From: Pirellulales bacterium | GTDB lineage: Bacteria > Planctomycetota > Planctomycetia > Pirellulales > JAICIG01 | Assembly: GCA_963786255.1 (NCBI GenBank) | Contig: CAWAYY010000013.1 | Span: 198,767-262,766, forward strand | Direction of reading: 5' to 3' | Length of the DNA stretch: 64,000 nt | Shown here: positions 39,786-58,243 of the stretch, piece by piece | Position numbering within the stretch: the stretch's first letter is position 1 | How the letters are laid out: each line of letters begins with the position of its first letter | Translations under genes and position numbers: made by a program | Notes under the pieces: generated by a model | Database searches by the model: none | Seen by the model: the letters and a program-made list of their open reading frames with translations, nothing else | Told to the model about the DNA's origin: nothing

Positions 39786-40491
39786 TTATTCATCCGCCAA
39801 ACGATATCCGACGCCCTGTTCCGTGAGCAGATAACGCGGCTGGGAAGGGGTTGCTTCGAGCTTTCGCCGTAGGCCCGCCATGAAGACCCGCAAGTAGTGG
39901 ACTTCCTCGGCATTGCCCGGCCCCCAGACCTCCTTGAGCAGTTGGCGGTGCGTGAGCACCTTGCCCGCGTGCTGGGCGAGCACGCTCAGCATGCGATACT
40001 CGATCGGCGTGAGGCGGATTTCCTTCTCTCCCAGGAAGACTGCGCCGCGCGGCAAAATCGACGGTCAAATCACCCACCGCGAAACGGGGCTCGCTCTTGC
40101 CGGCGGCTCGGCTGGCATGGCGGAGCGCGACGCGGACGCGGGCCAGCAGTTCGCCCATGCCGAAAGGCTTGGTCAGGTAGTCGTCGGCGCCGGAGTCGAG
40201 CGCGGCGATCTTGTCTTTCTCCTGCCCGCGAGCCGAGAGCACGATCACCGGCGCCGCCAGCCATTCGCGCAAGGTTCGCAGCACGTCCAGGCCGTCCTGG
40301 TCCGGCAGGCCCAGATCGAGGATGACGAGATCGGGCGGTTGTGAAGCGGCCAGAGTCAGGGCTTTCTGGCCCGTCTCCGCCTCGATCAGTCGATAGCCTT
40401 CTCCTTCCAGCGAAGCGCGCACGAATTTGCGGATCGGGCTTTCGTCTTCAATCAGCAAAATCTGCGTGGGAACGGGCATCGTGGGAATCAT
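39786..40491 (-). CDS. kdpE: KdpE response regulator (one frame break near 40050)
   Basis: REC domain QILLIEDESPIRKF...DLVILDLGLPDQDGLDV...DDYLTKPF in ORF 39790-40491. OmpR-type wHTH IRLTPIEYRMLSVLAQHAGKVLTHRQLLKEVWGP...LRVFMAGLRRKLE...GVGYRL in ORF 39786-40055. Confidence 0.85.
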
Positions 40492-40560
40492 GATAGCAAG
40501 AAGACCGCTGCCGCGGCGACGCGATCACGCGGCAAGGGTTCTCGCTCGGCGCTGCGGGAC

Positions 40561-43285
40561 TCATTCGGCGATCGCCTTGCGGATCAGCTCCTTTTCATTG
40601 GCGAGGGACGGCGGTTTCGTTCCCAAGGGTAAGCTGAAGGAAAAGCGGGCGCCGCCGCCCGAGCGGTTCTCGGCCCAGATCCGCCCGCCGTGCGCGGCGA
40701 CGATCGCCTTGCAGATCGCCAGGCCCAAGCCGGCGCCGGCTCGGCCGTCGGATGCCGACGCTGCGCCGCGAAAGAACTTTTCGAAGACGCGGTCTTCTTC
40801 GCCCGGCGGCAGCCCCGGACCGCGATCGTCGACGTCGACGATAATTTTACCCTCGTCTTGCCGCGCGTGGACTTCAATCGGCGTGCCGGGCGGCGAGTAT
40901 TTGGCTGCGTTTTCCAGCAGGTTGATCAGCGTCTGTTCGATCAGCACTTCGTCGAGCGGCACGAGCGTCAGTTCGCTCGGCACGCTGGTCGCGACGCTGC
41001 GCCCGGCCAGTTGGGCGCGCACCTGATGCAAGGCGGAACCGATGACCTCTTCGATCAGTTGCCATTCGCGGCGGACCTTGACGCTGCCGGACTCGATGCG
41101 CGTCATGTCGAGCAGGTTGTCCACCAGCCGGCTGAGTCGCCGGCCGTCGTCGTAGATCGTCTGGTACAGCTCGCGCCGCGTCGCCTCGTCCAGCGCATCG
41201 CCGGCCTGCAGCAAGCTGCTGCTGGCGCCGGTGATCACCGCCAGCGGAGTGCGCAGGTCGTGCGAGACCGAGCTCAGCAGCGAGCTGCGCAGCCTCTCGG
41301 CCTCGGCCTGGACCAGCACCGCCTGCACCTGCGCGGCCAGTTGGTCGCGCTCGATCGCGCCGGCAATCTGGCTGGCGAACGTCTCGAGCAACTGTCGCTG
41401 CTCGTGCATTTCGAACTGTTCCCGGCCCAGCGGCTTAATCCCCAGCACGCCAATCGGTCCCTGTGAGCCGACGAGCGGGATATAGAAGGCTTGCGCGCTG
41501 GGCAACGTGTTCGTGCCGATGCCGGCTTGCTGTTGATGGGCGAAGACCCACTGCGCGACGGCCAGTTCATTTTCCTGGGCGGCGAAACTCGTGGTAGCGC
41601 CGCCGGCCGATTTCAGCTTTTGCGCGTCGTCTGGCAGCAGCACGGCGGCCTCGCCGCCGAACAACGCGGCCAGTTGTCGGGACGCTACGTCGGCCAGTTG
41701 GTGGCTGCCTACTTGCCCGGCCAGTTGGCGGCTCATGTTGTACAAGGCCTCGGTCCGCCGCGCACGCTGTCGAGAGAATTCCGCCTGCTCGCGGACTCTG
41801 GCCGTCAACGTGCTCGTCGATAGCGCGATGCCGAACAACACCGCGAACGTAATCAGGTACTGCGTGGTATCGGCGACGGCGAAGGTGTGATAGGGAGGCA
41901 CGAAGAAAAAATCGAACAACAACACGCTGGCCAGCGACGCCAACGCTCCGGGGCCGCGCCCGTATCTCGCCGCGGCAAAGACGACGCCGAGCAACAGCAC
42001 CATCGCCAGGTTCGCTTCGGCCAGCCCGGCTTGGAAGATTGCCGCGTCGATCAGGCCGCAGGCGGCGACGATCAGCAGCCCGCCGGCGTAGTTCCGCCAC
42101 GAGCGCGCGTGTAGGGCGCGGAGCGGGAGCGGCGGCCAGCGGCTCTTCAATTCCGTGAATGACGTGGACGTCGATCTCGCGGCTATTGCGCAGCAGTTCG
42201 TCAACCAGGCTGCGGCGGAAGCGGCGATACCAGGGAAGCTGGCCCGTCTTGCCGACCACAATCCGGGTGACGTTGCGCACTCTCGCGTAACTGAGCAATT
42301 CCTCGGCCGGATTGGCGCCGGCGAGCGTGACGATCTCGGCGCCGAGTTGTTCCGCCAGTCGGACGTTGTGTACCAGCCGCTGCCGCGCCTTGGCGTCCAG
42401 CTCTTCGGCGCCCGGCCGCTCGACGTAGACGGCGATCCAGTCAGCCCGCATCAGGCTTGCCATGCGCTTGGCAGTACGGATCACGCGCGGCGACATCGGG
42501 CTGGGGCTGACGCAGACCAGCAGCCGTTCCGTGGTGGCCCAGGTCTGTTTAGCCGCGCCGGTCAGCCTGGCCGACTGTATCTCGGCGTTGACCCACTCGG
42601 CCATTCGCCGCAGTGCCAATTCTCGCAGGGCGGTCAGATTGGCTTTGCGGAAGAAGTTCTGTACGGCGTGCTCGGCCTGGGCGGACATGTAGATCCGACC
42701 GGTGCGGAACCGCTCCAGCAGGCTTTCGGGCGGCAGATCGACCAGCTCGACCTCGTCGGCCCGCTCCAGCAGCAAGTCCGGCACCGTTTCCTGCACGACC
42801 ACCCCGGTGATCTGGGCGACGACGTCGTTGAGGCTTTCCAGGTGCTGGACGTTCAGCGTCGTATAAACGTCGATACCGGCGTTGAGCAGCTCATCCACGT
42901 CCTGCCAGCGTTTGGCGTGCCGGCTGCCCGGCGCGTTTGTATGCGCCAGCTCGTCGACGACGACCAACGCCGGATGCTGCGCCAGCGCCGCGTCGAGATC
43001 GAATTCTTTGAGCTTGATGCCGCGATACTCGACTTCACGCAGCGGCACGATGTCCATGCCCAGCAGCATGGCCGCCGTTTCGCTGCGGCCGTGCGTCTCA
43101 ACGACGCCGACCAACACGTTCCGCCCGGCAGAGACGTCGCGGCGGGCCGTTTCGAGCATCGAATACGTCTTGCCGACGCCGGCCGCGAAGCCGAAGAACA
43201 GCTTCAACCGGCCTCGCTTGGCGCGTTCCTCCTCCGCCTGGACCTGGGCCAGCATCGCATCGGGATTGGGCCGCTCGTCGCTCAT
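40561..43285 (-). CDS. kdpD: KdpD sensor kinase (one frame break near 42110)
   Basis: KdpD N-terminal domain GFAAGVGKTYSML plus a Usp-like domain in ORF 41567-43285. TM cluster, GAF-like region, H-box SHDLRTPLAVI and HATPase ([17 protein letters not shown]) in ORF 40561-42261. Confidence 0.9.
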
Positions 43286-43364
43286 GGAATCGCTACGCCG
43301 GAAGGGACGGCGCCGTTGTAAGTCGGGAGCCTTGATCTTTTAACTTGGGGACGAGCACGGGCTG

Positions 43365-43416
43365 TAGGGTGGGCATTGCCCACCATGATTCGCTGGTGGG
43401 CAATGCCCACCCTACA
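43365..43416. repeat. nested perfect palindrome between kdpC and kdpD (REP-like element or bidirectional hairpin)
   Basis: GTAGGGTGGGCATTGCCCACC (43365-43385) is the exact reverse complement of GGTGGGCAATGCCCACCCTAC (43396-43416). Each arm is itself near-palindromic (GGTGGGCA/TGCCCACC). Confidence 0.7.
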
Positions 43417-43452
43417 AGATTCGATTCCTTGCGGAGGCGCACAGCTTGGATC

Positions 43453-44046
43453 CTATCGTTTTAGCTTGTCCAGCGCAAGATTCAGTTTCAGCACGTTGAC
43501 CCGCGGTTCTCCCAGCAGGCCGAGCTGACGCCCTTCGACGTGCTCTTCGATCAGCTTTCGTACGGAGCCTTCGTCGAGTTTTCTCGCCGCGGCTACCCGG
43601 CGCGCCTGGTAGAAGGCGCCCGCGGGGCTGACGTGCGGATCCAAGCCGCTGCCGGAGGCGGTCATCAAGTCGACGGGAATCGGCGCGTCGTTGTCGGGAT
43701 CGGCCTGGCGCAGCGCGTCGATCCGCGCCTTCGCGGCGGCGATCAAGGCCGGATTCAGCGGACCGAAATTGGAGCCGGACGAGCCGGTCAATTTCTCGGC
43801 ATTGAACGCCGTATACGGAACGGGCGAAGTGGCCGATAAGCGGCCCCAGAAGTAGCCCGGCTCGTCGAACGACTGACCGATCAGCTCCGAGCCGACGATC
43901 TGCGAGTCTTCCACGATCAGGCTGCCGCGGGCCTGCCGCGGGAAGAGCGTCTGTGCGACGCCTGTCACCAGCAACGGATAGGCGACGCCCGTCAGCAGCG
44001 TCAGCACGAGCAAACACATTACAGCGGAACGAATTTGGCGGATCAT
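43453..44046 (-). CDS. kdpC: K+-transporting ATPase subunit KdpC
   Basis: Start at internal ATG 44046 ([29 protein letters not shown]); the track start is 44121. [18 protein letters not shown] and [11 protein letters not shown] motifs. Confidence 0.85.
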
Positions 44047-44117
44047 GAGAGTTGCGAGTGGTGAGTTGGGAGTTGGCATTAGGGAGTGCAGCATTGCGGA
44101 ACTCGCAATGCAATTCT

Positions 44118-46190
44118 TCAAACCAGGTGAAACAACGCGAGGACAAGGTCGATCGCCTTGATGCCGACGAACGGCACGATCAACCCGCCCAGGCCGTAAA
44201 TCAGCAGGTTTTCCCGCAGCAGTTGTGCGGCGGGCACGGGCCGATAGCGCACGCCTTTCAACGCCAGCGGAATCAGGGCGATGATGATCAAGGCATTGAA
44301 GATCACGGCCGACATGATGGCGCTTTGCGGCGTGGCGAGCCGCATCACGTCGAGCGCTTTGAGTTCCGGGTAAATCGTGGCGAAGGCGGCGGGAATGATG
44401 GCAAAGTACTTGGCGACGTCGTTGGCGATGCTGAACGTGGTCAGCGCGCCGCGCGTCATCAGCAACTGCTTGCCGATCTGGACGATCTCCAACAGCTTGG
44501 TCGGGTTCGAGTCGAGATCGACCATATTGCCCGCTTCCTTGGCGGCCTGCGTGCCGCTGTTCATCGCCACCGCCACGTCGGCCTGGGCCAGCGCCGGCGC
44601 GTCGTTCGTGCCGTCGCCCGTCATCGCCACCAGCCGCCCGCCCGCCTGGTATTCGCGGATCAGGTTGAGCTTAGTCTCCGGCGTGGCCTCGGCCAGGAAG
44701 TCGTCGACTCCCGCTTCGGCCGCGATGGCGGCGGCGGTGAGCGGGTTGTCGCCGGTGATCATGATGGTCTTGATGCCGCCGCGGCGCAGTTCGGCGAACC
44801 GCTCCTTGATGCCCCCTTTGACAATGTCTTTGAGCTGCACCACGCCGAGCACGCGCGGCCCTTCGGCCACGACCAGCGGCGTGCCGCCCGAGCGGCTCAC
44901 GTTTTCGACGATCGCCTTCATGCCGGCCGGAAACTCGCCCCCCTGCGATGCGACGTAGCGCTGCACCGCATCGGCGGCGCCTTTGCGGATCTCGCGGTGG
45001 TCCAAGTCCACGCCGCTCATTCGCGTCTGCGCCGAGAACGGCACGAACGTGGCCCCGAGCGTATGGATGTCGCGGCCGCGGAGAGAAAACTCGCGCTTGG
45101 CCAGCACCACGATGCTGCGGCCTTCCGGCGTTTCATCCGCCAGCGAAGACAATTGCGCCGCGTCGGCCAGTTCCCGGGGCTCGACGCCTTCGGCGGGCAG
45201 GAAGGCGGCCGCTTGCCGATTACCGAGCGTGATGGTGCCCGTCTTGTCCAGCAGCACCACGTCCACGTCTCCCGCGGCTTCGACGGCCCGGCCCGACATG
45301 GCGATCACGTTGGCCGCACTCAGGCGGTGCATGCCGGCGATGCCGATCGCCGAAAGCAGGGCCCCGATGGTGGTGGGGATCAAACAGACCAGCAGCGCCG
45401 CCAGCACGGTTACGGTAATGGGACTTCCCTGTCCCGCCGCCTCGACGCCGAACATGGAAAAAGGCAGCAGCGTGGCCGTGGCCAGCAGAAAGATGATCGA
45501 CAACCCCGCGAGCAGAATGCTCAGGGCAATCTCGTTGGGCGTCCGCTGCCGCTTGGCGCTTTCGACCATGGCGATCATGCGATCCAGAAAGCTTTCGCCG
45601 GGCATCGTGGTAACGCGAACGAGCAGCCAGTCGGAGAGCACCTTGGTGCCTCCGGTGACCGAAGAGCGGTCGCCGCCGCTTTCGCGGATGACCGGCGCAC
45701 TTTCGCCCGTGATGGCGCTCTCGTTGACCGAGGCCACGCCCTCGATCACCTCGCCGTCGGCGGGAATCAGATCGCCCGCCTCGACCAGCACGACGTCGTT
45801 GAGCTTGAGTGCAGACGCCGGCGCTTCTTCATAAGCCGAATCGCGGCGAGGCTCGACAAGCAGCTTGGCGATGGTTTCCGTACGGCTCTGGCGCAGCGAT
45901 TCCGCCTGCGCCTTGCCGTGCCCCTCGGCCAGCGCTTCGGCAAAGTTGGCGAACAGCACCGTGAACCAGAGCCAGACCGAAACGGCCAGGGTGAACCCGG
46001 CCGGCGCCTCGCCTGATCCGCCGAGAGAGTGCAGCCACAGCACCAACGTCACGAGCCCGCCGACGAAGACGGTGAACATAACCGGGTTGCGCACCTGGAC
46101 GCGCGGAGAAAGCTTGCGAAACGATTCGATCACTGCGCGGCGGAAAATGGCCGCGTCGAACAGGGACGCTTGTTTGGAAGAAACCGTCAT
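44118..46190 (-). CDS. kdpB: K+-transporting P-type ATPase subunit KdpB
   Basis: Intact 690 aa with [27 protein letters not shown] and [12 protein letters not shown] motifs. Confidence 0.97.
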
Positions 46191-46221
46191 GTTTGTCGTG
46201 CCTTTTATTCGAAAGCGGCCG

Positions 46222-48022
46222 CTACTGAGCCGTCATGATGAGTTGTTCCGCGATCGGTCCCAGCGCCAAGGCCGGAATGAACGTCAAGGCGCCGACGAGA
46301 ATCACGACCGCGATCAGCAACGTGACGAACAGCGGCGTATGCGTCGGCATTGTGCCGGCGCCGACCGGCACGATCTTCTTTTTGGCCAGCGAGCCGGCAA
46401 TGGCCAAGGCGGGAACCATCACCCAGAACCGGGCGAACAGCATGGCCAGGCCCAGCATAGTGTTGTAGAAGGGCGTGTTGGCGCCCAAACCCGCAAAGGC
46501 ACTGCCGTTGTTGTTGCCGGCAGACGAGAAAGCGTACAGCACCTCGCTGAAGCCGTGCGTGCTCGGATTGAAGATCGTCGCCTTGCCTTGCGGAGTTACG
46601 ACCGCCACGGCCGTGCCGATCAGCACGGCGGCACAGGGAACCAGGATTCCGATCGCAGCCATCTTCATCTCGTAGGCTTCGATCTTCTTGCCCAGATATT
46701 CCGGCGTACGGCCGACCATCAGTCCGGCGATGAACACCGCCACAATCGCGAACAACAGCATGCCGTACAATCCGGAGCCGACTCCGCCAAAGATCACCTC
46801 GCCCAATTGCATCAGCCACATCGGCGCCGCGCCGGCCAGCGGCGTGTACGAATCGTGCATGGAGTTCACCGAGCCGTTGGAGGCGGCCGTGGTGGCCGTC
46901 GCCCAGAGCGCGGAATTGACCACGCCGAAGCGGGCTTCTTTGCCTTCCATGTTGCCGCCGGCTTGTTGACCGCTGGCGGCGAGATCGGCGCCGAGCTCGG
47001 CAAGCTGCGGCGTTCCACGCTGCTCCAGCAACATGCACGGGATGGTTAGCGCGACAAAGACGATCGTCATCGCGGCCAGCAGGGCCCAGCCTTGCCGCGT
47101 GTCGCCGACCATCGCGCCGAACGTGTGGCACAGCGCCGCCGAGATCAGCAAAATCGAAAGCATCTCCAGCAAGTTGGAAACCGGCGTGGGGTTCTCCAAC
47201 GGATGGGAGGAATTGACGTTGAAAAAACCGCCGCCGTTCGTGCCTAATTGCTTGATGGCAATCTGCGAAGCCGCGGGGCCCATCGGCAGCGTCTGCTCGG
47301 CGACCGACACGGTTTCCATGATCGGATTGTCGTCGGCGTCTTTGCGCCCGCCCGTCTTCGTCCAACTCAGGTTGCTCGTAGCTGGTCGCTTGCAGCAACG
47401 GAACGTTTTGATAGGGTGCGAACGTCTGCACGACCCCCTGCGAGACAAGTAGTAACGACAGCACGACCGAGAGCGGCAGCAGGATGTAAATCGTGGAGCG
47501 CACGAGGTCGACCCAGAAGTTGCCGATCGTGTCGATCGACGCCGGCTGAGGCCGCGAATAAGGGCTACAAGCACCGCCATGCCCGCGGCCGCCGAGACGA
47601 AGTTCTGCACGTTCAGGCCGAGCATCTGGGTGAGATCGCTCATCGTCGTTTCGCCGCCGTAGCCTTGCCAGTTCGTGTTGGTGGCGAAACTGACGGCCGT
47701 ATTGAAGGATGAATCGGGCGTGACCGGACCCAGCGCTTGCGGATTCAAAGGCAGCAAGGTCTGAAACCGTTGCAGCAAGTAGACGGCGACGAACCCAGCG
47801 GCGCTGAACCAGAGCATGGCGGCGGCGTAGCTCGTCCAGCGCATCTCTGCCAGCGGATCGATGCCGCAGAGGCGATAAATCAGCCGCTCGAACGGCGCAG
47901 CAGGCGCCGAGCCAGGTCGGGCGGCCTTCGTAGACGGCGGCCATGTAGGCGCCCAGCGGTTTGGCCAGCAGCATCAGCAGCACCAGGTACAAACCGAGTT
48001 GAAGCCAGCCGTTGGCGGTCAT
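46222..48022 (-). pseudogene. kdpA: KdpA, three frame breaks
   Basis: [33 protein letters not shown] (ATG 48022 overlaps the kdpF stop, ATGA). The body alternates between ORFs 46205-48040 and 46222-47844. Motifs [47 protein letters not shown]. Breaks near 47880, 47520 and 47330. Confidence 0.9.
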
Positions 48023-48111
48023 GAAAACTTCTCCGGCCAAAGCAAGGCCACGGTGAGATAAACGAACAGGGCGAGCGAAACGATCGTCGCCATCACGTGA
48101 ATCCAGTGCAT
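48019..48111 (-). CDS. kdpF: KdpF small subunit (30 aa)
   Basis: [30 protein letters not shown]. Single TM plus a PEKF tail. GGAGG sits 6 nt upstream. Stop overlaps the kdpA ATG. Confidence 0.75.
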
Positions 48112-48122
48112 TGCCGACCTCC

Positions 48123-48203
48123 TTAGAGTCGATCGAACAAGTAGACGATTCCGCCTGTCGCCAGGAAGAATCCCAAGCCGAGCATTAAATACCATGCGTC
48201 CAT
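48123..48203 (-). CDS. unannotated 26-aa hydrophobic micro-ORF immediately upstream of kdpF
   Basis: [32 protein letters not shown] lies about 10 nt upstream. Stop is 11 nt before the kdpF ATG. A same-length homolog holds the same position in the second kdp operon (53608-53688). Confidence 0.4.
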
Positions 48204-48376
48204 GAACGACGTGCTCCTGATCTGTTAACCGGCTCTTAATCGGGCCACACGGCCTGCGTTTTGTGCGACGCAAGCAGATTGGCAGCAGCGCACGGGCACA
48301 AACACCCATAGAGATTATGCGACTAGGTTCCCAATGCGTCACGAATTTGAGCGACTTGGGCATCAAGGTGGCGCTA

Positions 48377-48409
48377 ATTTTAGCTCTTGCCGCATTAAGA
48401 AAACATAAA
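48377..48409 (-). promoter_or_regulatory. candidate kdp promoter: direct repeat TTTATG-N5-TTAATG (OmpR/KdpE-type spacing) plus TAAAAT -10 box
   Basis: Minus strand reads TTTATGttttcTTAATGcggcaagagcTAAAAT. Half-sites at 48404-48409 and 48393-48398 (11-bp period), -10 at 48377-48382. About 170 nt upstream of the micro-ORF. Confidence 0.3.
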
Positions 48410-48961
48410 GAGCGGCCAAAACGACCTGCTAAATGTGGACAAAAACGTTGTCGTTAAGGTCGCTCGGCAACAATCGAGAAATCTTCGTCGCCCGTAAGCT
48501 GCGAGCTCGACTTGCGAAGGTGTGGGCTGCGCGCGGTTGCGTCTGTGGCCCGCATGCTTTCATCGCAATTCTCGTGCCGCCTGGCGCTGGCGGCGAGTCG
48601 GGGTTTCTCGTGCAGCCGCCCTCGGCACGAAGCGTTTCCTGTTGCCAAAGCCCGATGTTCTCGGCGCGCCGACATGCCCGATTGGGAGGCTCAGGCGCGA
48701 ACGAGTCGCATTCTTGGCGGCCTGCGCATCGCACGGGCGCCGCTTGCCGGCGCCGCCAGCTCCGGCTTCTCCCTTGGCGGCTGGGTTGGCCGAGCGGCGG
48801 GCCGCAAGCAGCATCGGGCAAGAAATAGAGTCGCACGAAAGCTCGGCCGCGCAGGGTGCGGAGCGTAGTTCAAGCATGGGACGCGCGGCATTTTTGGAAG
48901 ATGACGAGCTTATCGGCATTTGCGATTGCGCGGTTTACTTCATCCTTGTCGTCCACGACGA

Positions 48962-49616
48962 TTAAGCGAATGGCTGCCATTCTGCGTGTGAACTGAGGGG
49001 AGTTATCCCGCACGTACTCGAAAACGAGTGCGCGACCAGGCGGTCAGAGGCCTGGGGCGGGCTGCTCGACCGAATCATCGAGGCCACGTTAAGTTCGAGC
49101 ACGTTGATCAGGGGCTCTCCGCCGAAGGCGATGAGCGTGGGAGCGTCGGCGTGCTCGTGGACGAGCGCTTTCACGGTTTCCGCCGACAAGTTACGAGCGT
49201 CCGCTACGCGAGCGACTTGAAACATCGCAGCCGCTAGCGAAATGTGGGGGTCCATCCCGCAGCCGGAGGCCGAGACAAGATCGGCCGGAACGAGTTGGCC
49301 CGTCGGGCTTTAGGCGCCGATGATTTGCTGCGCCCGATCGGTAATCTGGGATTCGCGGGCGACAAATTGCTGCCGCCCGTGGCACTTGCATTGTAGTCGC
49401 AGGCCGAGGGCCGCGGCCAGAAGTAGTCCGGCCGCGTAAAGTTCTGCGCGAGCAGCCGCGAGCCGACGATCGTTCCGTCTTCCGCCGGATCAGGCTTCCC
49501 TGTCGCGACTGCGGCGCGGCCACGGCGGCGAAACCCAGAATGACGGCCGAATAGGCCGCCGAGCAGACCAGCAGGCTCAATAAGAACAGTCGCAATGAAG
49601 TGATGATGTCACTCAT
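48962..49616 (-). pseudogene. kdpC: second-copy KdpC, at least 2 frame breaks
   Basis: MSDIITSLRLFLLSLLVCSAAYSAVILG (ATG 49616). C-terminal DPHISLAAAMFQVARVADARNLSAETVKALVHEH...GEPLINVLELNVA in ORF 48962-49255. The middle is in other frames. Confidence 0.75.
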
Positions 49617-51758
49617 GTTCAATTCTTTTTCTCACCCCGGGGCCAAAGGCTATGCCAATCCGAGGCCCGATCAGGATCAGGTCGATCAGCTTGATTCCGA
49701 CAAACGGCACGACCAGATCCGCCCAAGCCGTAGATCAGCAGGTTCCGCCGCAGCAAAGCGTCGGCTCCCGACGGCCCGGTAGCGCACGCCCCGGATGGCG
49801 ATCGGAATCAGGCAGGGGATCACGATGGCATTGAAGATCACGGCCGACAGGATGGCGACTCTGCGGCGTGGCCAGCCGCATGATGTTCAGCACCGCCAGC
49901 TGCGGCAGCGCGACCATGAAGATCGCCGGGATGATCGCGAAGTACTTGGCGACGTCGTTGGCGATGCTGAACGTGGTCAGCGCGCCGCGCGTCATCAGCA
50001 TCTGCTTGCCGACCGAGACGACGTCGATGAGCTTGGTGGGATTCGAATCGAGGTCGACCATGTTGCCGGCTTCCTTGGCGGCCTGCGTCCCGGTGTTCAT
50101 CGCCACGGCCACGTCGGCTTGGGCCAGCGCGGGGGCGTCGTTCGTGCCGTCGCCGGTCATGGCCACCAGGTGCCCGTCTTTCTGGTACTTGCCGGATCAG
50201 TTCGAGCTTCGCCTCGGGCGTGGCCTCGGCCAGGAAGTCATCGACGCCGGCCTCCGCGGCGATCGCGGCGGCGGTCTTGGGGTTGTCGCCGGTGATCATC
50301 ACCGTCTTGATCCCCATGCGTCGCAGCTCGGCGAAGCGTTCCTTGATGCCGCCCTTGACGATGTCTTTCAGGTACACCGTCCCCAGCACGCGCTTGTTCT
50401 CGGCCACGACCAGCGGCGTGCCGCCTGCGCGGGCGATCGCGTCCACGTCGCGTGCGACTTGCTCGGGAAACTCGCCGCCCTGCTCGTCGACGAACTGCTC
50501 GGATCGCGTCGGCCGCCCCTTTGCGGATCTGGCGGCCGTCGAGGTTGATCCCGCTCATTCGCGTGCGGGCGGTGAAGTGGACAAACTCGGCCTGCGTTGC
50601 TTCCAGCTCCCGGCCGCGGATGTTGAACTGCTCTTTGGCCAGCACGACGATGCTGCGGCCCTCGGGCGTTTCGTCGGCCAGCGAGGCGAGTTGGGCCGCA
50701 TCGGCCAGTTGCCGTTCCTCGACGCCCGGCGCGGGCCGGAATTCGGCTCGCCTGGCGATTCCCGAGCGTGATCGTGCCGGTCTTGTCCAGCAGCAGCACG
50801 TCCACGTCGCCGGCCGCCTCGACCGCCCGGCCGGACATGGCCATCACGTTGGCCTGGCTCGAGCCGCGCCATGCCGGCGATGCCGATCGCGGCCAGCAAG
50901 GCGCCGATCGTCGTCGGAATCAGGCAGACCAGCAGCGCCACCAGCGTCGGCACGTCGATCGTCACATCGAAGTACTGCGGCGATGGGATAAAGCGTCGAC
51001 GCAGACCATCAGGAAGACGAGCGTGAAGCCGGCCAGCACGATCGTCAGCGCGATTTCGTTGGGCGTCTTTTGCCGCTCGGCTCCTTCGACCATGGCGATC
51101 ATGCGATCCAGGAAGCTCTCGCCGGGTCTGGCCGTGACGCGAATCACCAGATGATCGGAGAGCACGCGCGTGCCGCCCGTGACGGCCGTGCGGTCGCCGC
51201 CGCTTTCGCGAATCACCGGGGCGCTCTCGCCGGTGATCGGCTGATTCGTCGACCGAGGCGACGCCCTCGATGACTTCGCCATCGGCCGGGATGATTTCTC
51301 GCCGGCTTCCACGCGCACGACGTCGCCGTCTTGCAACTCGCGACGCCGGCACGTCTTCGCCACTGGCTCTGCTCTTGGTCGACGAACCGATGGGCCGTCA
51401 CGTCCTGCCGGGCCTTGCGCAGGCTGGCCGCCTGGCGCGCCCCGCGCCTCGGCCACGGCCTCGGCGAAGTTCGCAAACCAGACCGTCAGCCACAGCCAGC
51501 ACGGAGACGGCGAGGAAGTAGCCGGTGCCTTCGCTGCCGGAGACGGCCGCCGAGAGCGTGACCAACGTGGTCAGCATGGCTCCCAGCTCGGCGACGAACA
51601 TCACCGGGTTGCGGGCCATCGATCCGCGGGTTCGAGCATCTTGACGGCCTGCGCCGATCGACGGCAGCAGCATGTCCGGCGGTGAAAAGCGACTTCTCGC
51701 TTGCGAGAGCGATCGCGCCACTCCGGAGATCGGATCTGAACACGCCGTGTCGAGTCAT
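49609..51758 (-). pseudogene. kdpB: second-copy KdpB, at least 8 frame breaks
   Basis: Motifs are scattered over 8 or more overlapping ORF fragments: NPVMFVAELG (51398-51721), [13 protein letters not shown] (50368-50847), [28 protein letters not shown] (49838-50446), [44 protein letters not shown] (49735-50166). Confidence 0.85.
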
Positions 51759-51807
51759 TGGCATTGACGTCCTTACTGATGCATTCGTTGAGATTTGACC
51801 CCTCGAA

Positions 51808-53489
51808 TCACCGCATGCTGAGGTGTTCGGCGATCGGACCCAGCATCGCCAGCGGCAGGAACAGCAGCGCGCCGACGATCAGGACCGTTCCCAGCAGGAC
51901 GACGCCGAACAGCAGCGTGTCGGTGCGGAACGTGCCGGCCGGTCTCCGGCGTGGCCCGCTTGGCGGCCAACGAGCCGGCAATGGCCAGCGGCGCGATGAT
52001 GGGAATGAACCGAGCCAGCAACATGATCGACGCCCGTGGCGATGTTCCACGGCACGGTGTTGTCTCCCAGACCCTCGAAGCCCGAGCCGTTGTTGGCCGC
52101 CGCCGAGCTGAACTCGTAGACGATTTCGCTCAAGCCGTGGCTGCCCGGGTTGTGGAGCGTGTCCAGGCCCCACGCCGTGACTGCGAACAGGGCCGTCCCG
52201 CCCAGGATGAACAGCGGATGCGCCAGCAGCGCGATCAGCGCCAGCTTCATTTCCTTGGTTTCGACCTTGCGCGTCGAGATATTCCGGCGTGCGGCCGACC
52301 ATCATGCCCGCCAGGAACACGGCGGTAATCGATGAACAGGAACATGTTGATCAGCCCGACGCCGACGCCGCCGAAGACGACGTTCAGCCACATGCCGGCC
52401 ATCGGCACGAGGCCGGTGAGCGGATTGAGGCTGTCGTGCATGGCGTTCGACGGTGCCGTTGCTGGTCGAAGTCGTCGAACGGCCCAGGTGGCGCCGGCGG
52501 TCGGGCCGAATCGCAGCTCCTTGCCTTCGAGGTTCATCGATTGCTCGACCGGCAGCTCGGCCAAGGCGGCCGTCGGCTGCGTTTCAAGCAAACAAGCCGG
52601 CGACGACGAAACCCAGGTAGAGCGCCAGCATCACGCCGAAGACGACCGCGGCGTGCCTGAGCCGACCGGTGATGCGGCCGAACATCCAGACCGTGGCCAT
52701 CGGAATGAGCAGGATCGCCATGTTGCGAGAGCACATTCGACCAGAACGTCGGATTCTCGAACGGATGCGTGCAGTTGGGCCCGAAGAAGCCGCCGCCGTT
52801 GGTGCCCAATTGCTTGATCGCGACGAAGGCCGCCACCGGGCCGCGGGCGATCGTCTGCGTCGCGCCTTCCAGCGTCGTGGCGACCGCCGCGCCGTCGAGC
52901 GTCATCGGCACGCCGCAAAAGACCAGCAGCGACGGCCCAGACGAGCGCCAGCGGCAGCAGGATCAAGCCCGGTCGCCCGCCACACGTCTTGATAGAAGTT
53001 GCCCAAGTTTGTGCGGCCGGCCAGTCCGCGGCACAGTCGCCGTGACGGCCGCGATGCCCGGTCGCCGCGCTGACGAATTGCAGCCACATCAGTGCAAACA
53101 GCTGCGAGAAGTAGCTCAGCGACACTTCGCCCGAGTAGTGCTGCAAGTTCGTGTTGCTGGTGAAGCTGGCCGCGGTATTGAAGGCCAGACTCGGTTCGAG
53201 CGGCCCTTTGCCATCCGGATTGAGCGGCAGCCACTGCTGGGTCGTCAGGACCGCGATACACGAAGACGAACATCAGCACATTGAATGCGCAACATCGAGA
53301 CGCAGTACTGTTTCCAGTCTTGCCCGCTCGCCGCCCGCTGTCCTAGGATTCTGGTGATGATCGACTCATATCGCTGTCGATTCGGCCCCGCCGATCGGGA
53401 TCCATTGCCCACTTCATGTAACGACCTAGCGGCCACGACAGCGCGACCGTCGCTCCGATAGTGATCGCAGGAATCAGAAAGCCGACCAT
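51808..53489 (-). pseudogene. kdpA: second-copy KdpA (divergent paralog), at least 8 frame breaks
   Basis: MVGFLIPAITIGATVALSWPLGRYMKW (ATG 53489). [24 protein letters not shown] (ORF 52534-52911), [14 protein letters not shown] (51879-52250), MVGRTPEYL. Terminus [11 protein letters not shown] at 51808. Confidence 0.8.
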
Positions 53490-53504
53490 TGAAATAATCC
53501 TTGC

Positions 53505-53597
53505 TTAAAATCGCTCTGGTCTCGCCATCACGTAGCCCAAGTACGCGAAGGCGAAGACGGTCGTCAAAATCACGCACGCATTCACAACGATGTCCAT
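53505..53597 (-). CDS. kdpF: second-copy KdpF (30 aa)
   Basis: MDIVVNACVILTTVFAFAYLGYVMARPERF*. GGAGAG upstream. 15 nt before the kdpA' ATG, with AAGGA between them. Confidence 0.65.
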   Translation of the reverse strand: MDIVVNACVILTTVFAFAYLGYVMARPERF

Positions 53598-53607
53598 CGA
53601 TCTCTCC

Positions 53608-53688
53608 TTACAGCCAGTCGCAGGCGAAGACGAAACCATACATCGCCGCAAACGCGGCTAAGCCGAGTAATAACATCAAAAGCCACAT
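53608..53688 (-). CDS. 26-aa hydrophobic micro-ORF upstream of second-copy kdpF (homolog of 48123-48203)
   Basis: MWLLMLLLGLAAFAAMYGFVFACDWL*. GGGAGA lies 8 nt upstream. Stop is 10 nt before the kdpF' ATG. 11/26 identical to the operon-1 peptide, same length and position. Confidence 0.4.
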   Translation of the reverse strand: MWLLMLLLGLAAFAAMYGFVFACDWL

Positions 53689-54034
53689 TATGGAGTCTCC
53701 CAAAAATTCAAGAGCGGTCAGCTTACTGCGCCGATCTCCCAGTGAAACAAATCCCGCGTCAAGACGACGTCAAGTTCGCCTCGCGACGGATCAATAAAGC
53801 GTTAAGATGCAAATCCTGGCTTTCGGAGGCTGCGAGCGATCAGATTAGCCGCAATCGGTCGAGTCGGCAGACGCACCACCGTCAGCAATAGGCATGCCAA
53901 TGATTGCGACTCAGACCTCGACCTGGCTTTCCGGGGCGGCGTTACCCGAGTTCCAGCCTCTCTCGTGACGAATCGTGTCTTGGCGGGCGGCCCACGGTCA
54001 CGAGACCATTGGACGTGACCGGCGAGTTCTCACA

Positions 54035-54163
54035 TCAGCGTACGCCCAATCGCTCGCTTTGTGCGTCGTCGATGCATCGAGCCACTGCCGACCTATAGGG
54101 TCCAGGCAGGATGGCGAGCAGCGCGAGATGTTGACTGAGTCGAGACCGGCCAGTGGCAGTCAT
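54035..54163 (-). pseudogene. kdpA: 5' relic of a third kdpA
   Basis: ATG overlaps the orphan kdpF stop (ATGA), as in operon 1. MTATGRSRLSQHLALLAILPGP versus operon-1 [22 protein letters not shown] (10/22 identical). Homology is lost after about 25 codons. Confidence 0.5.
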
Positions 54164-54252
54164 GGAGATTTCTCCGGCCGAAGCAACGCGACCGTTACAT
54201 AAACAAGCAGGCTGACGGAAACGATCGTCGCCAGCAGGTGAATCCAACTCAT
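54160..54252 (-). CDS. kdpF: orphan third KdpF-like ORF (30 aa)
   Basis: MSWIHLLATIVSVSLLVYVTVALLRPEKSP*, 20/30 identical to operon-1 KdpF. AAGGAGA lies 6 nt upstream. The surrounding ~115 nt are about three-quarters identical to 48013-48130 by eye. Confidence 0.55.
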   Translation of the reverse strand: MSWIHLLATIVSVSLLVYVTVALLRPEKSP

Positions 54253-54843
54253 ACAAGTCTCCTTAGACGTTAATCGACCCGCTTGCGGGGCCGCTTGCCC
54301 GGCCTTTACCCTGGCATAGGCGATTTCGAAGCGGCGGACCGCAAACGGCGTCGATTCCTTGGCTTGCTTATCCGTGTCTTTCTGACCGATTGTCAGTCTG
54401 CCACGTAGATGCTCGAGGCCAGCATCCAACTGAAATAGGCGACAAATATTGCGATGCCTAAAACTTTGGGTAAGTCTTCAGACGAGCCCGCCGCCACGTC
54501 GAAACGAGGTCGGCGAGACGCTGGCTAAATGCTCTCAGGTCAAGTGCAACTCGCATTGCTCGACTTTTTCCTCCGTCTGCAAAATCGTCGGGCCATTGCC
54601 AAGCAGGCTTGGCGAAAGCATTGCCAAACGCACAATGTTCATTGCTGCATTTCAGCCGTCGGAAATCCGAATGGCATCGGCGACCGATCAGCTCCTCCAA
54701 GATACGTTGTTAGCATCGAGTTCTCATTGACGCTCAATGAATCCTATCGCTCGGTGCGTCAAAATGGCGTTAAACCAACGATGTGAGAAATCAAAAATGC
54801 ATTAAGACGGCATCAAAGGAGCTAGCGCCTGATCATTTCGTGA

Positions 54844-57049
54844 TCAAGACTTCGGCATCGCCCTCTCGCGCAAAACATTGACTCCCACGTCATATTCGTG
54901 CCGCTGCAAGAGCATGTCGAAGGTCGTTCCCGCCACTTCCAAGTTGTAGATGCGGAGTTCGTTCAGCGATTCGGGGAGCCGCGGGCGATAGAAACAGACG
55001 GATGCTTCAGGTGCGCGATGTGAAGCCCCAGGCAGGCTTGGAAGAGCAGGAAGACTGACGCCGCGGACCAGGCCTGCGCGGCGCAGGCTACAGGATAGGG
55101 AATGGGCCCTTCTCCCGAGGCCGAAGAAAAGCCGCAAAACAGCTCCGGCATGCGATGCAGGGGAAAGCGAAGCCCAGCCTCCAACATGCCCGACCAGAGC
55201 TGCGACGCCATGCCTTCGAGTCCATAACGGGCAAAGCCCTGCGCAATGAGGGCGTTGTCGTGAGGCCAGACCGCGCCATTGTGATACGACAGGGGATTGT
55301 AGCGTTTCTCGCTGGCAGTGACCGTCCGGACGCCAAAGCCGGAGAACGAATCACCGTCCATCAGGCGGCGGGCAAGCGGCCACGCTCGCTCCGAGTTCGC
55401 GATGCCGGTGAACAGGCATTGGCCGGCGTTCGACGTCCGCACCCGGCAAGGCCGCTTGTCGCCGTCGAGCGCCAAAGCGTACGTCGAAAGCTCTTCGCAC
55501 CAGAATGCTTGATCGAATGCCTCCTTCAAGGTCAACGCCTGGTTGCGCAAGGTTGCCGCTCGATCGGCATGGCCCAGCAACTCGGCCAAAGTCGCCGCGC
55601 CCACGCGGCGTAGACGTAGCCTTGCACCTCGCACAGCGCGATCGCTCCTTGCGCCAGCGAGCCGTCGGCGTGAAACACGGCGTCATCGGAGTCCTTCCAT
55701 CCTTGGTGAATCAGGCCGCAGGGCGATTTGCGATGGTATTCGACGAATCCATCTCCGTCCCGATCGCCGTACTCATCGATCCAGTTCAGCGCCGCTTCGA
55801 TATTCGGCCAGATCGTTTCGATGAATGCGCGGTCGCCGGTGCGCTCATAGTAGGCGCCTGCCAAAAGCACAAACAGCGGCGTGGCGTCGACGCTCCCGTA
55901 GTAACGGCCAAACGGCATTTCTTTCAGAATCGCCATTTCTCCGTTCCGAGTCTCGTGCAGGATCTTTCCCGGTTCGGCGTCTTCTTCCGGAAAATCTTCT
56001 TGAGTTTGCGTAGCAGCCAGGTAGTTCAGCACGCCACGCGCAAGGCCGGGCCGAATCCAGAGCGAGGCGAGCGCGGTAATGATGCCATCGCGGCCGAAGG
56101 GCGTATTGAACCACGGGACGCCCGCATAGGGGTAAGGCCCTGTGGGAAGTTCCGTCGTCATCATGTGCAGGTCGGACACAGCGCGGTTGACCCACGCATT
56201 CACCTGCCCATTTGAGGTCGACAGGCGACACGACCAGGACTTGTATCGCTCGACGTCTTTGATCGCCGCCATTCGCGCTTTGCTGTAGGAGGCGAGGCAC
56301 GCGCTGCGCGGCTCGCCATCGCAGCCGACGCTCCATTCCAGGCAAATCTCTTCTTTAGGCGCCAACAGCAAGTCGTACCGAGCGCTCGAAACGCTGAGCT
56401 GCGAAGGGAACGGCGAAAAGCGAATTCGCGTTCGGCGCACGAGGCCATCCAGCCCTCGATACGAGAGCGTCACTTCGCTGCCGCTCACGGACGGCGCCAG
56501 ATCCTGGCCGCGAGCCTCGCGGCGCATGCCGCGAACCTCAAAAATGTCGGCAAAGTCGGCGCTAAAATGGAGGGCGAGCGAAAAGCTCGCCGGTTCCAGG
56601 CCGTAGTTGACGATCGAACACCGCTGGTAGCAGCAGGCGCCCCACAGGAATTTCCAAAGCGCCAGGTGCAAGGTTCCGAGCGGCGTGCACACGCGGCCTG
56701 CTTCGATCAGATCGGGATTGGTCAAGGCGACGGAAAGCTGATCGTTCGCGTTGCCGATCGTCGAACTGAGGAAAAAGGGACGATTGCCTGCCAATTCCAG
56801 CGACAGCGATGAGAGATGGCGGGTGCCGTCGTGGTACAGCCCCTCCTCGCCAAGGCCGCCGGGATTGATATCGCCGAAGTGATCGAAGACGGCGAAGGTA
56901 TCGCCGTGCTTGAGCACGCGCGTCTCATCGTCCATCAGGCTCGATAGCGCGAGAATCGGGCGAGAGCGGGATCCATCGCCCGCAATCGAGCGTGTTGCGG
57001 CGACATCCTGGTCCTCGCCCTCGGCGCATCCGGAAATAGCGTCGGTCAT
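54844..57049 (-). pseudogene. amylo-alpha-1,6-glucosidase / glycogen-debranching-enzyme-like protein (two frame breaks)
   Basis: ATG 57049 (MTDAISG). GDE N-terminal region plus (alpha/alpha)6 domain blocks AGVPWFNTPFGRDGIITAL, GKILHE, DATPLFVLL, GFVEY...GLIHQGWKDS in ORF 55532-57310. YHNGAVWPHDNALIAQG in ORF 54963-55634. Tail in ORF 54844-55137. Confidence 0.85.
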
Positions 57050-57065
57050 GGTTAGGTTCCTGCTG

Positions 57066-58243
57066 TCATTTCGGGTGACGCGCGGCGGGCGGCGATATGC
57101 GCCCGGCGACATTCGCGCGGTCCGCCGGCGCTCGCTGGCGAGCCGCGGCTTGCGCCTTGACTCGGGAGCCGGAGAGCAACGGGAGCGTGCGGCGAAGTTT
57201 CGCGATCGGATCCGGATCAAGGTCGATGAGGCGCGAATAGACTTCGAAATAGTCTTGCGCCATCCGGCCGACGTCGAATCGCTGCTCGAACGCCTGGCGG
57301 CAGCGTCCACGCTTCAGACGCGGTATGTGTCCCAGAACCTCGAGGGCCTCCTCCTCGCACTCCACGAGGAACCCGGTGACGCCGTCCTGAATGATTTCGG
57401 GTACGGAGCCGTTGGGCCAAGCGATGACAGGCGTGCCGCACGCCAGCGATTCGATCATGACCAGGCCAAAGGGTTCAGGCCAGTCGATCGGGAACAGCAA
57501 AGCCGCGGCGTTGCCGAGGAATTCGTCCTTTTGACGACCGCCCACCTCTCCGATGAATTCGACCCACGGCTGCGACTCTCGCAGCAGGGGCTGGATGACT
57601 TGACGAAAGTAGCCTTCTTCTTCCGGATAAACCTTGGCGGCGACCTTGAGTCGCATTCCTGCTCGCTTCGCGATGCGGATGGCTCGGTCGAGTCCTTTTT
57701 CCGGGCACACGCGCCCAGAAAGGCCAGATACTCGCCCTGCCGAGGCTGGTAGGTCAGTAAATCGCTCGGCAGGCCATGATAGACGGTCGCTTCCCAGCGC
57801 CCTCGGGAGCCGGTCGACGCTGATCATTGGAGATGGAAACCAGCGGCGCCTCCGGGTACTGATCGAAAAACGGCTTTAAGTCGGGCGCATGAACGCGTCC
57901 GTGCAAGGTCGTGACGCTCCGGCAAGGCGATCGCCGCAAAAGCGGGAAGTGCATGTAGTCGCAGTGGAAATGCACGATGTCGAACCGCGACACGTTTTCG
58001 AACACTAGTTCCAGCATCCGGACGTGGTGCGGGAGGGTCTCGCGGCAGTTCTCTTCTCGCCACAATGCGCGGGCATGCCGGAATGAGTTTGGCGGCGGTC
58101 TGAGAATCGCCGCTGGCGAACAGGGTGACTTCATGCCCTTGATGCACCAGTTCTTCGGTCAGGTAGGACACGGCTCGCTCCGTGCCGCCATAAAGCTGAG
58201 GCGGTACGCTTTCATAGAGCGGCGCCACTTGTGCAATTCGCAT
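57066..58243 (-). pseudogene. GT4-family glycosyltransferase (glycogen-synthase-like), at least 3 frame breaks
   Basis: MRIAQVAPLYESVPPQLYGGTERAVSYLTEELVHQGHEVTLFASGDS (ATG 58243). DIVHFHCDY...PLVSISNDQRR. C-terminal GRVCPEKGLDRAIRIAK...EPFGLVMIESLACGTPVIA in ORF 57066-57827. Confidence 0.8.

Follow-up and report, generated by a model that had tools for sequence, protein, structure and literature searches.

In a 64,000-nucleotide stretch of a Pirellulales genome assembly (contig CAWAYY010000013.1, positions 198,767 to 262,766 of the forward strand; hereafter the window), each of two operons for Kdp, the textbook high-affinity K+ pump, begins with a micro-ORF (open reading frame) of 26 codons that lies directly ahead of kdpF. 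Our analyses strongly support the view that each micro-ORF encodes a genuine translated and conserved peptide with a single transmembrane (TM) helix that is linked to Kdp. Profile comparisons place both in one large family, unnamed before and apparently specific to kdp operons, which is distinct from KdpF, the 26-30 aa fourth subunit of KdpFABC (PF09604/TIGR02115). Neither this genome nor Planctomycetota as a whole is unique in having the micro-ORF, homologues at the equivalent position spanning at least eight phyla. To our knowledge, no P-type ATPase but Kdp works with a channel-like partner, and the composition of Kdp as KdpFABC has, as far as we know, been defined almost entirely in Escherichia coli, a species that lacks a gene for the micro-protein; this is probably why the family, which neither Pfam nor NCBIfam includes, has been missed. 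We consider it probable that the micro-protein is an accessory subunit or an assembly/stability factor of KdpFABC, made with KdpF and KdpA, inserted beside them and probably contacting KdpA.

Results

Both micro-ORFs lie on the minus strand. Micro-ORF 1 (uORF1) occupies 48123-48203, with its ATG at 48203-48201 and its stop, TAA, at 48125-48123 (26 codons plus stop); a Shine-Dalgarno (SD)-like AGGAG stands at 48214-48218 (minus strand), 10 nt 5' of the ATG, and 11 nt that include GGAGG separate the stop from the ATG of kdpF1 at 48111. Micro-ORF 2 (uORF2; MWLLMLLLGLAAFAAMYGFVFACDWL) occupies 53608-53688, with its ATG at 53688-53686 and its stop at 53610-53608 (likewise 26 codons plus stop), is preceded by an SD-like GGGAG at 53697-53701 on the same strand, 8 nt 5' of the ATG, and ends 10 nt, with GGAGA among them, ahead of the kdpF2 ATG at 53597. 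The initial annotation of this DNA had described two 26-codon ORFs at these places, each with a ribosome-binding site of its own and each stopping 10-11 nt ahead of kdpF with a GGAG-type site in between, and all of these features are present. It had also counted 11 identities between the two peptides, and the ungapped identity of 11/26 is indeed above that of composition-matched shuffles (mean 4.1, P=1.7e-4). The C-terminal ends read ...FDRL in uORF1 and ...CDWL in uORF2.

The family around uORF1 (clade 1) was assembled from 80 loci related to KdpA1, the KdpA of operon 1, with one genome per species; by their record titles, these loci come from Planctomycetota, Gamma- and Betaproteobacteria, Chloroflexota, Methylomirabilota, Nitrospirota, Bacteroidota, Verrucomicrobiota and Binatia, and most of them carry a hydrophobic ORF of 26-33 codons immediately ahead of kdpF. 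A profile hidden Markov model (HMM) was built from 52 members, leaving out the window and its two closest relatives (L001 and L002), and was run on the 80 loci and the window, translated from stop to stop in all six frames (1.36 M residues). All matches at E<1e-3 lay on the kdp strand directly 5' of kdpF, the best off-target match reached only E ~2.5, and uORF1 was recovered at E=4e-7 (29.7 bits). Conservation ahead of kdpF in related genomes, by which the initial annotation had proposed to judge the ORFs, is widespread, a family member being found at the expected place in 66 of the 75 clade-1 loci that have sufficient upstream sequence. The family consensus, M-D-x-x-[YF]-L-x-L-x-x-x-F-F-A-x-[TS]-x-x-L-V-x-x-C-[ED]-[RK]-L, describes a predicted single-pass membrane peptide of 25-33 aa, in which D2, F12 and F13 each occur in at least 90% of sequences and the C-[ED]-[RK]-L end is conserved too, a constraint that exceeds mere hydrophobicity.

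Selection was assessed on the ungapped 25-codon core in 15 phylogenetically independent close pairs. The micro-ORF frame gave pS=0.507, pN=0.177 and a ratio of nonsynonymous to synonymous change (dN/dS) of 0.239, as against 1.21 and 2.18 for the +1 and +2 frames of the identical DNA, and variability at the three codon positions was 0.50/0.38/0.65. For kdpF, which served as the control on 13/15 of those pairs, dN/dS was 0.233, which shows that purifying selection on the micro-ORF is as strong as on kdpF. The frame-specific selection and codon-position bias that a comparison of synonymous and nonsynonymous changes had been expected to reveal are thus both present. Between uORF1 and L001, the 8 nt differences resolve into 6.5 synonymous and 1.5 nonsynonymous changes; the nucleotide alignment with L001 and L002 becomes possible exactly from the uORF1 ATG on, and L002 retains the ORF although a 54-nt insertion separates it from kdpF.

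Start and spacing signals point the same way across the family, with an ATG start in 64/67 members, an SD-like motif in 56/67 and a modal length of 30 aa. In 33/59 loci, the stop and the kdpF start share an ATGA (-4 nt), and in 19 more the spacing is -1 to +12 nt. As read from this gene spacing, the micro-ORF is shown to be translationally coupled to kdpF, by ATGA overlap or by a gap of at most 12 nt, and the tight ATGA coupling suggests stoichiometric co-synthesis with the structural subunits. Translation itself can be approached through published ribosome profiling (Ribo-seq) of Sinorhizobium meliloti, where the family candidate corresponds to the C-terminal 27 residues of SM2011_a2335, a 68-codon annotated hypothetical protein encoded directly ahead of kdpF (CP004138.1:1302686-1302889, S. 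meliloti 2011 pSymA; positions 698-1048 of our locus L174). For this gene, a translation efficiency (TE) of 0.83/1.99 was reported, with Ribo RPKM (reads per kilobase per million) of 22.7/48.7 and RNA RPKM of 27.4/24.5 (PMC10117765, Suppl. Table 6), values that exceed the numeric cut-offs of that study. SM2011_a2335 is probably an over-extended call of the 27-aa peptide; the profiling signal, which the initial annotation had suggested looking for, therefore lends modest support, being above the cut-offs but attached to a weak match within an over-extended ORF.

The second micro-ORF belongs to a different branch. KdpA2, the KdpA of operon 2, falls in a separate KdpA clade with 40-57% identity to the KdpA1-related set, and uORF2 reached only E=0.09 with the clade-1 HMM. 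In 80 metagenomic relatives fetched with the stitched KdpA2 fragments (clade 2), uORF2 homologues such as MWLGMLMLGVACFAVLAAFTWACDRL and MWLIMLMLGIGCFAVLAAFTWACDRL stand at the equivalent place, and intermediate peptides, MIVFYLILGLVAFGVLAGLTKLCERL among them, are found in these loci as well. With a clade-2 HMM from which the window was left out, uORF2 was the top match (E=6.5e-8, 32.5 bits) and the next matches were clade-1 members at the right position. The two profiles aligned with hhalign at 97.5% probability (E=7.8e-12), or at 96.2% (E=2.6e-9) when the window sequences were left out on both sides, and 20 column-shuffled controls never exceeded 6%. On these profile comparisons, uORF1 and uORF2 belong to one family, and that family is distinct from KdpF. 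None of the KdpF models (PF09604, TIGR02115 and NF011342) matched either micro-ORF or six typical members at E up to 10, and hhalign comparisons with KdpF gave 9-19% for clade 1 and 34-59% for clade 2 (shuffled controls at most 6%). In the KdpF alignment, Y18, L19 and F29 are invariant and P26 and E27 occur in at least 90% of sequences, a signature that the micro-ORFs lack; in place of the Y-L...P-E-[KR]-F end of KdpF, they carry M-D...F-F...C-[ED]-[RK]-L, and the family co-exists with KdpF rather than standing in its stead.

Gene order varies within the family. Many clade-2 loci are ordered kdpF-kdpB-[peptide]-kdpA-kdpC, with the peptide (e.g. MTILYLVLGLIIFALLFAMASALDRA) directly ahead of kdpA (L089, L096, L118, L136-L138, L144, L146, L147, L152 and L154); L149 and L162 share the permuted order and have no hydrophobic small ORF ahead of kdpA. 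A profile of the before-kdpA peptides finds the before-kdpF peptides at E=1e-7 to 1e-2 (hhalign, 97.4%), and one locus, L136, carries two members, a clade-1-type peptide ahead of kdpF (3-212) and a second one ahead of kdpA (2401-2484). Deinococcus radiodurans has kdpB-pep-kdpF-kdpA-kdpC: kdpB and kdpA on MP1 (L169, NC_000958.1; 18923-19530) are 600 nt apart, and in this gap, for which the incomplete PLSDB table lists no gene, a 26-aa member (MDILLPLLLVVFFALCAAYLRGMDNL, E=2e-4) stands ahead of a canonical kdpF. The published order for MP1, kdpB-kdpA-kdpC, leaves out both the peptide and kdpF (PMC5716572). Across these arrangements, the constant neighbour of the micro-protein gene is kdpA, with or without kdpF between them. 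The slot ahead of kdpF may also hold other peptides. In seven lower-GC loci (L133, L140, L153, L157, L158, L161 and L164, at ~2061-2163), it is taken by a different peptide of 30-32 aa, MNVYHQLYLGILIFLILTGVAGLIGFIIHIGG, which aligns to clade 2 over the N-terminal 21 columns only (84% probability) and lacks the C-terminal motif, and in L014, L021 and L074 by other divergent hydrophobic peptides.

The breadth of the family became apparent in database searches. A profile search of 5.8 billion proteins, with a query alignment headed by a natural 42-aa member, returned 350 clusters at E<=1e-3; among the 120 matches listed, nearly all were 29-31 aa long, without a Pfam domain and called "hypothetical protein" where the source gave a name, and in two independent look-ups, finds made by sequence only were located ahead of kdpF-kdpA-kdpB. 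An exhaustive search of 1.84 billion representatives yielded 2,687 clusters at E<=1e-3, in which the matching part was nearly always the C-terminus of the ORF as called. Neither Pfam nor NCBIfam gave a relevant match for the two peptides or the six typical members, and a profile search of the PDB found no relative of the micro-protein. The linkage to kdpF that the initial annotation had noticed in two paralogous operons is real, but its frame was too narrow, the peptides representing a large pan-bacterial family rather than an oddity of paralog retention. Database matches of 55-191 aa, considered as fusions to KdpF, KdpA or other domains, were rejected as over-extended starts, out-of-frame read-through or tandem duplicates. 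One of the longer sequences, P0121 (68 aa), is an in-frame tandem duplication of the micro-protein in which the first copy is degenerate and the second intact. In L066, a Planctomycetota metagenome-assembled genome (MAG), a single ORF of 62-65 aa (3636-3824) combines the micro-ORF and kdpF in frame; this fusion was not used as evidence, since we guess the source to be a long-read MAG (its MFD naming is shared with Mb-scale contigs) and an indel artefact is possible.

For the plasmid records examined, the distributed gene tables are incomplete and list no gene at the micro-protein position. Members directly ahead of kdpF were nevertheless found in Caballeronia (E=2e-9), Rhizobium leguminosarum WSM1325 (1.4e-7), Phenylobacterium (4e-4) and Ralstonia solanacearum (1e-3), and weaker candidates stand at the correct position in Acetobacter, Streptomyces, Variovorax and S. 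meliloti pSymA. The Phenylobacterium locus (L172, 1018-1211) is a Caulobacterales kdp operon with both a family member and a kdpF that is absent from the gene table. Rho-dependent effects and a "structured" 100-nt 5' region ahead of kdpF have been reported in Caulobacter (PMC8552747), and this "100-nt highly structured 5' UTR" (untranslated region) of Caulobacter crescentus may in fact be the micro-protein ORF. On the other hand, no family match was obtained in E. coli K-12, Raoultella, Lactobacillus plantarum, Enterococcus, Halobacterium or two cyanobacterial plasmids. Four Methylobacter loci (L055, L058, L070 and L073) have kdpF-kdpA without the micro-ORF, which sister Methylococcaceae possess, an apparent case of recent loss. 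Absence from lineages with similar operons implies that the peptide is not essential for Kdp function in general.

Discussion

Cross-phylum conservation, position-specific HMM matches, frame-specific dN/dS and the ATG, SD-like and ATGA signals together support the proposal of the initial annotation that the micro-ORFs encode a translated single-TM peptide. In the mechanism that we favour, the peptide would be synthesised in step with KdpF and KdpA, would insert into the membrane beside them, where it would probably contact KdpA, and would serve KdpFABC, a P-type K+ pump, by analogy with KdpF, either as an accessory subunit or as a factor in assembly or stability. The annotation had left the choice between an extra Kdp subunit and a leader peptide; the subunit is now favoured and the leader disfavoured, the gene being internal in permuted operons. 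The family is new and unannotated, its kind of molecule, the small TM accessory peptide, is known, and gene position and conservation strongly suggest a functional link to Kdp.

Several considerations weigh against a role as a pump subunit. The association with the pump is drawn from gene neighbourhood and translational coupling only, and no natural fusion to KdpA, KdpB, KdpC or KdpF was seen among the top hits examined. Methylobacter, enterobacteria, Lactobacillales and Halobacterium lack the peptide despite otherwise similar operons. The solved KdpFABC structures are described as four-subunit complexes, and a 2023 review presents P1A ATPases as KdpFABC heterotetramers (PMC10654040); the family profile matches no PDB chain, and E. 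coli, the organism of the crystal structure in that review, has no family match 5' of kdpF. The S. meliloti peptide for which ribosome footprints are available is a weak family match (E=0.48), and the footprints were counted over the over-extended 68-codon annotation. The kdp genes of the window are frameshifted, which makes function in this particular genome uncertain. Finally, flanking charges give no confident topology; a positive-inside assignment was dropped because the charges of the tails do not agree between clades. Nor was the C-[ED]-[RK]-L end accepted as a CaaX-like or lipidation motif, the Cys often being replaced (by F in uORF1) and many members having extra C-terminal residues.

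An alternative that we regard as unlikely is that the micro-protein is a regulator, binding the sensor kinase KdpD or a protease/chaperone and tuning the expression or turnover of Kdp. There are precedents in the action of MgrB on PhoQ, of MgtR and MgtS on Mg2+ transporters, and in that proposed for mycobacterial KdpF on sensor kinases. A small single-TM peptide within a regulated operon is a typical feedback arrangement, operon 1 continues into kdpDE, dispensability in several lineages fits a modulatory role, and membrane peptides that act on kinases and transporters have been described (PMC3618439, PMC12648545). The invariant neighbour, however, is kdpA or kdpF-kdpA and not kdpD, the peptide is also found where no full-length kdpD is annotated next to the structural genes (Deinococcus), and the co-synthesis suggested by the ATGA coupling is with structural subunits. 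It is similarly improbable that the peptide is the by-product of a cis-acting translated leader, in which translation of a short hydrophobic ORF would matter rather than its product, for example by loading ribosomes for kdpF/kdpA, protecting the mRNA from Rho or targeting it to the membrane translocon. That the micro-ORF comes first in the common form of the operon and overlaps the kdpF start in most loci would suit such a leader, as would the Rho-dependent effects and structured region described for Caulobacter (PMC8552747), a Caulobacterales relative of which has a family member there. Yet amino-acid constraint equals that on KdpF (dN/dS 0.24 vs 0.23) and specific residues (D2, F12, F13 and the C-terminal motif) are conserved beyond hydrophobicity. 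Where gene order is permuted, the ORF also lies within the operon, downstream of kdpB, a position difficult to square with a 5' leader or attenuator. A leader peptide of the attenuation type fails on the same internal position and kdpF-like dN/dS, and on the lack of a terminator or Rfam element; no known RNA element or terminator was found between micro-ORF and kdpF, and a stop that overlaps the kdpF start leaves no room for a terminator.

Descent from KdpF itself, as a very remote paralogue that arose by an ancient duplication and provides a second KdpF-like site or a partial substitute, seems to us very unlikely. The two share size class, a single TM helix and adjacent genes, the clade-2 profile scores against KdpF above the shuffled controls, and in kdpF-kdpB-pep-kdpA-kdpC loci the peptide fills the usual slot of kdpF ahead of kdpA; but no Pfam or NCBIfam KdpF model matches any member, the invariant Y-L...P-E-x-F signature is missing, the clade-1 probabilities are low and canonical kdpF is retained in nearly all operons. 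We assign next to no probability to the micro-ORFs being fortuitous in GC-rich intergenic DNA or part of a non-coding RNA element under conservation. Short ORFs do occur commonly, and errors abound in the large genes of the window, but the position-specific family matches, the frame-specific purifying selection with third-position variability, and a conservation that begins at the ATG refute a chance or non-coding reading of the micro-ORFs. Across 47000-55000, Rfam returned nothing beyond a chance-level match to sucA-II, and the idea of a riboswitch or other RNA element was dropped.

The accessory-subunit reading gains perspective from known systems. One of them is KdpF: it too is a tiny single-TM protein, its gene stands near the start of the operon and is translationally coupled to the downstream neighbour, purifying selection on it is equally strong, and annotation long missed it. 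The closest precedent may be in Clostridium acetobutylicum, for which work attributed to Treuner-Lange et al. in 1997 and Behrens et al. in 2001 reportedly described small hydrophobic peptides encoded 5' of kdpA, orfZ/kdpZ and orfY/kdpY, and a six-subunit Kdp complex. By this description, orfZ is followed by the KdpF-like orfY and then by kdpA, the same arrangement as in the window, and the role proposed for kdpZ as an extra Kdp subunit is alike; the likeness is one of gene arrangement and proposed role. The statement in the initial annotation that no Kdp component is known at this position may therefore be incomplete. If kdpZ is homologous, the family would have been named in one organism and would still be absent from Pfam, NCBIfam and the gene tables examined. 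The two Bacillota operons examined (L. plantarum and Enterococcus, both Lactobacillales) contain no family member.

Another extra small hydrophobic product of a kdp operon beyond the E. coli set is encoded in cyanobacteria, where Ballal and Apte are said to have used the name "kdpG" in 2005 for a gene between kdpB and kdpC. In the cyanobacterial loci at hand (L170, 5275-5547; L171, 4355-4555), the gene between kdpB and kdpC encodes 66-90 aa, is called "subunit F" by PGAP and, unlike the micro-protein gene, specifies a KdpF domain to which a further TM helix is joined at the N-terminus. The family HMM did not match this helix at E<1, and the flanking charges suggest the opposite orientation, so that it was rejected as a natural fusion partner. 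The literature searched contained no description of an ORF 5' of kdpF, nor of kdpG or kdpZ/kdpY/kdpX. In a wider sense, sarcolipin/phospholamban and FXYD proteins of P2 ATPases, CydX of cytochrome bd, AcrZ of AcrB, and MgtS/MgtR are the same kind of molecule, small TM helices that bind large membrane machines and stabilise or tune them (PMC10654040, PMC12648545). They have no sequence relationship to the micro-protein, whose binding to Kdp and effect on it are putative.

Together, these data describe a gene that is constrained like kdpF, is represented by ~2,700 clusters and is also found in model organisms such as R. leguminosarum, R. solanacearum and D. radiodurans. If the micro-protein belongs to the complex, Kdp would consist of five components rather than four in many bacteria outside the enterobacteria, and structural and mechanistic models of non-enterobacterial Kdp would be incomplete. 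A bolder generalisation, which we hold to be a serious possibility while stopping short of calling it probable, is that most non-enterobacterial Kdp pumps are five-component machines in which an unannotated peptide of 25-33 aa, shared by groups as far apart as Planctomycetota, Proteobacteria, Chloroflexota and Deinococcus, binds KdpA beside KdpF and is needed for assembly, stability or regulation, the four-subunit form of E. coli being a reduced special case. Even if purely regulatory, the peptide would be a new player in K+ homeostasis. From a practical point of view, the HMM combined with a positional rule (directly ahead of kdpF/kdpA) would allow thousands of genes to be annotated at once and also points to genetically tractable hosts.

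Other features of the window

Operon 1 runs on the minus strand from 48203 down to 39790 in the order micro-ORF, kdpF, kdpA, kdpB, kdpC, kdpD, kdpE. Its kdpF1 (48019-48111) encodes 30 aa, overlaps the kdpA ATG with its stop (ATGA) and matches PF09604 at E=1.6e-7, above the curated cut-offs of both models (PF09604, 31.5 bits vs 21.2; TIGR02115, 36.2 vs 26.85). It is followed by kdpA1 (46205-48022), which has several small deletions or frameshifts, by an intact kdpB (44118-46190; 690 aa, 97% aa identity to KdpB of L001), by kdpC (43453-44046) and, 3' of these and judged from ORF translations, by kdpD (40561-43285) and kdpE (39790-40491). Upstream of micro-ORF 1, a sigma-70-like promoter match, GTGACG-17-CATAAT, lies at 48314-48342 on the minus strand, ~110 nt 5' of the ORF; this is weak evidence, as the promoter and terminator scan was at chance level, with one weak promoter-like match against 0.9 expected and no terminator.

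Operon 2 extends on the same strand from 53688 down to ~49080 in the order micro-ORF, kdpF, kdpA, kdpB, kdpC. Here kdpF2 (53505-53597) encodes 30 aa ending in MARPERF and has homologous KdpFs in clade-2 loci; it is below the Pfam cut-off (PF09604, 18 bits, E=0.003) yet has the PERF end. The remaining genes, kdpA2 (~51814-53489), kdpB2 (~49672-51613) and kdpC2 (~49082-49485), fall within 49082-53489 and are each split over several frames. The sucA-II match lies within kdpB2 on the opposite strand (50975-51149, plus) and reaches 21 bits where the gathering score is 70 (E=0.16), almost certainly by chance.

Frameshifts interrupt many large genes in 39790-57310. With a Pirellulales MAG (L001) as the closest relative, the assignment of this DNA to Pirellulales is reasonable. 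Relative to its closest relative L001, a Pirellulales MAG with 93% nt identity in this gene, kdpA1 has four deletions of 1-2 nt, kdpD and kdpE both change frame, and kdpA2, kdpB2 and kdpC2 are each in 2-8 pieces. An error-prone, indel-prone assembly is the most likely cause rather than kdp-specific decay, pseudogenisation being a less likely one. A glycogen-debranching-like gene, judged from ORF translations only, is likewise split at ~55532-55634.

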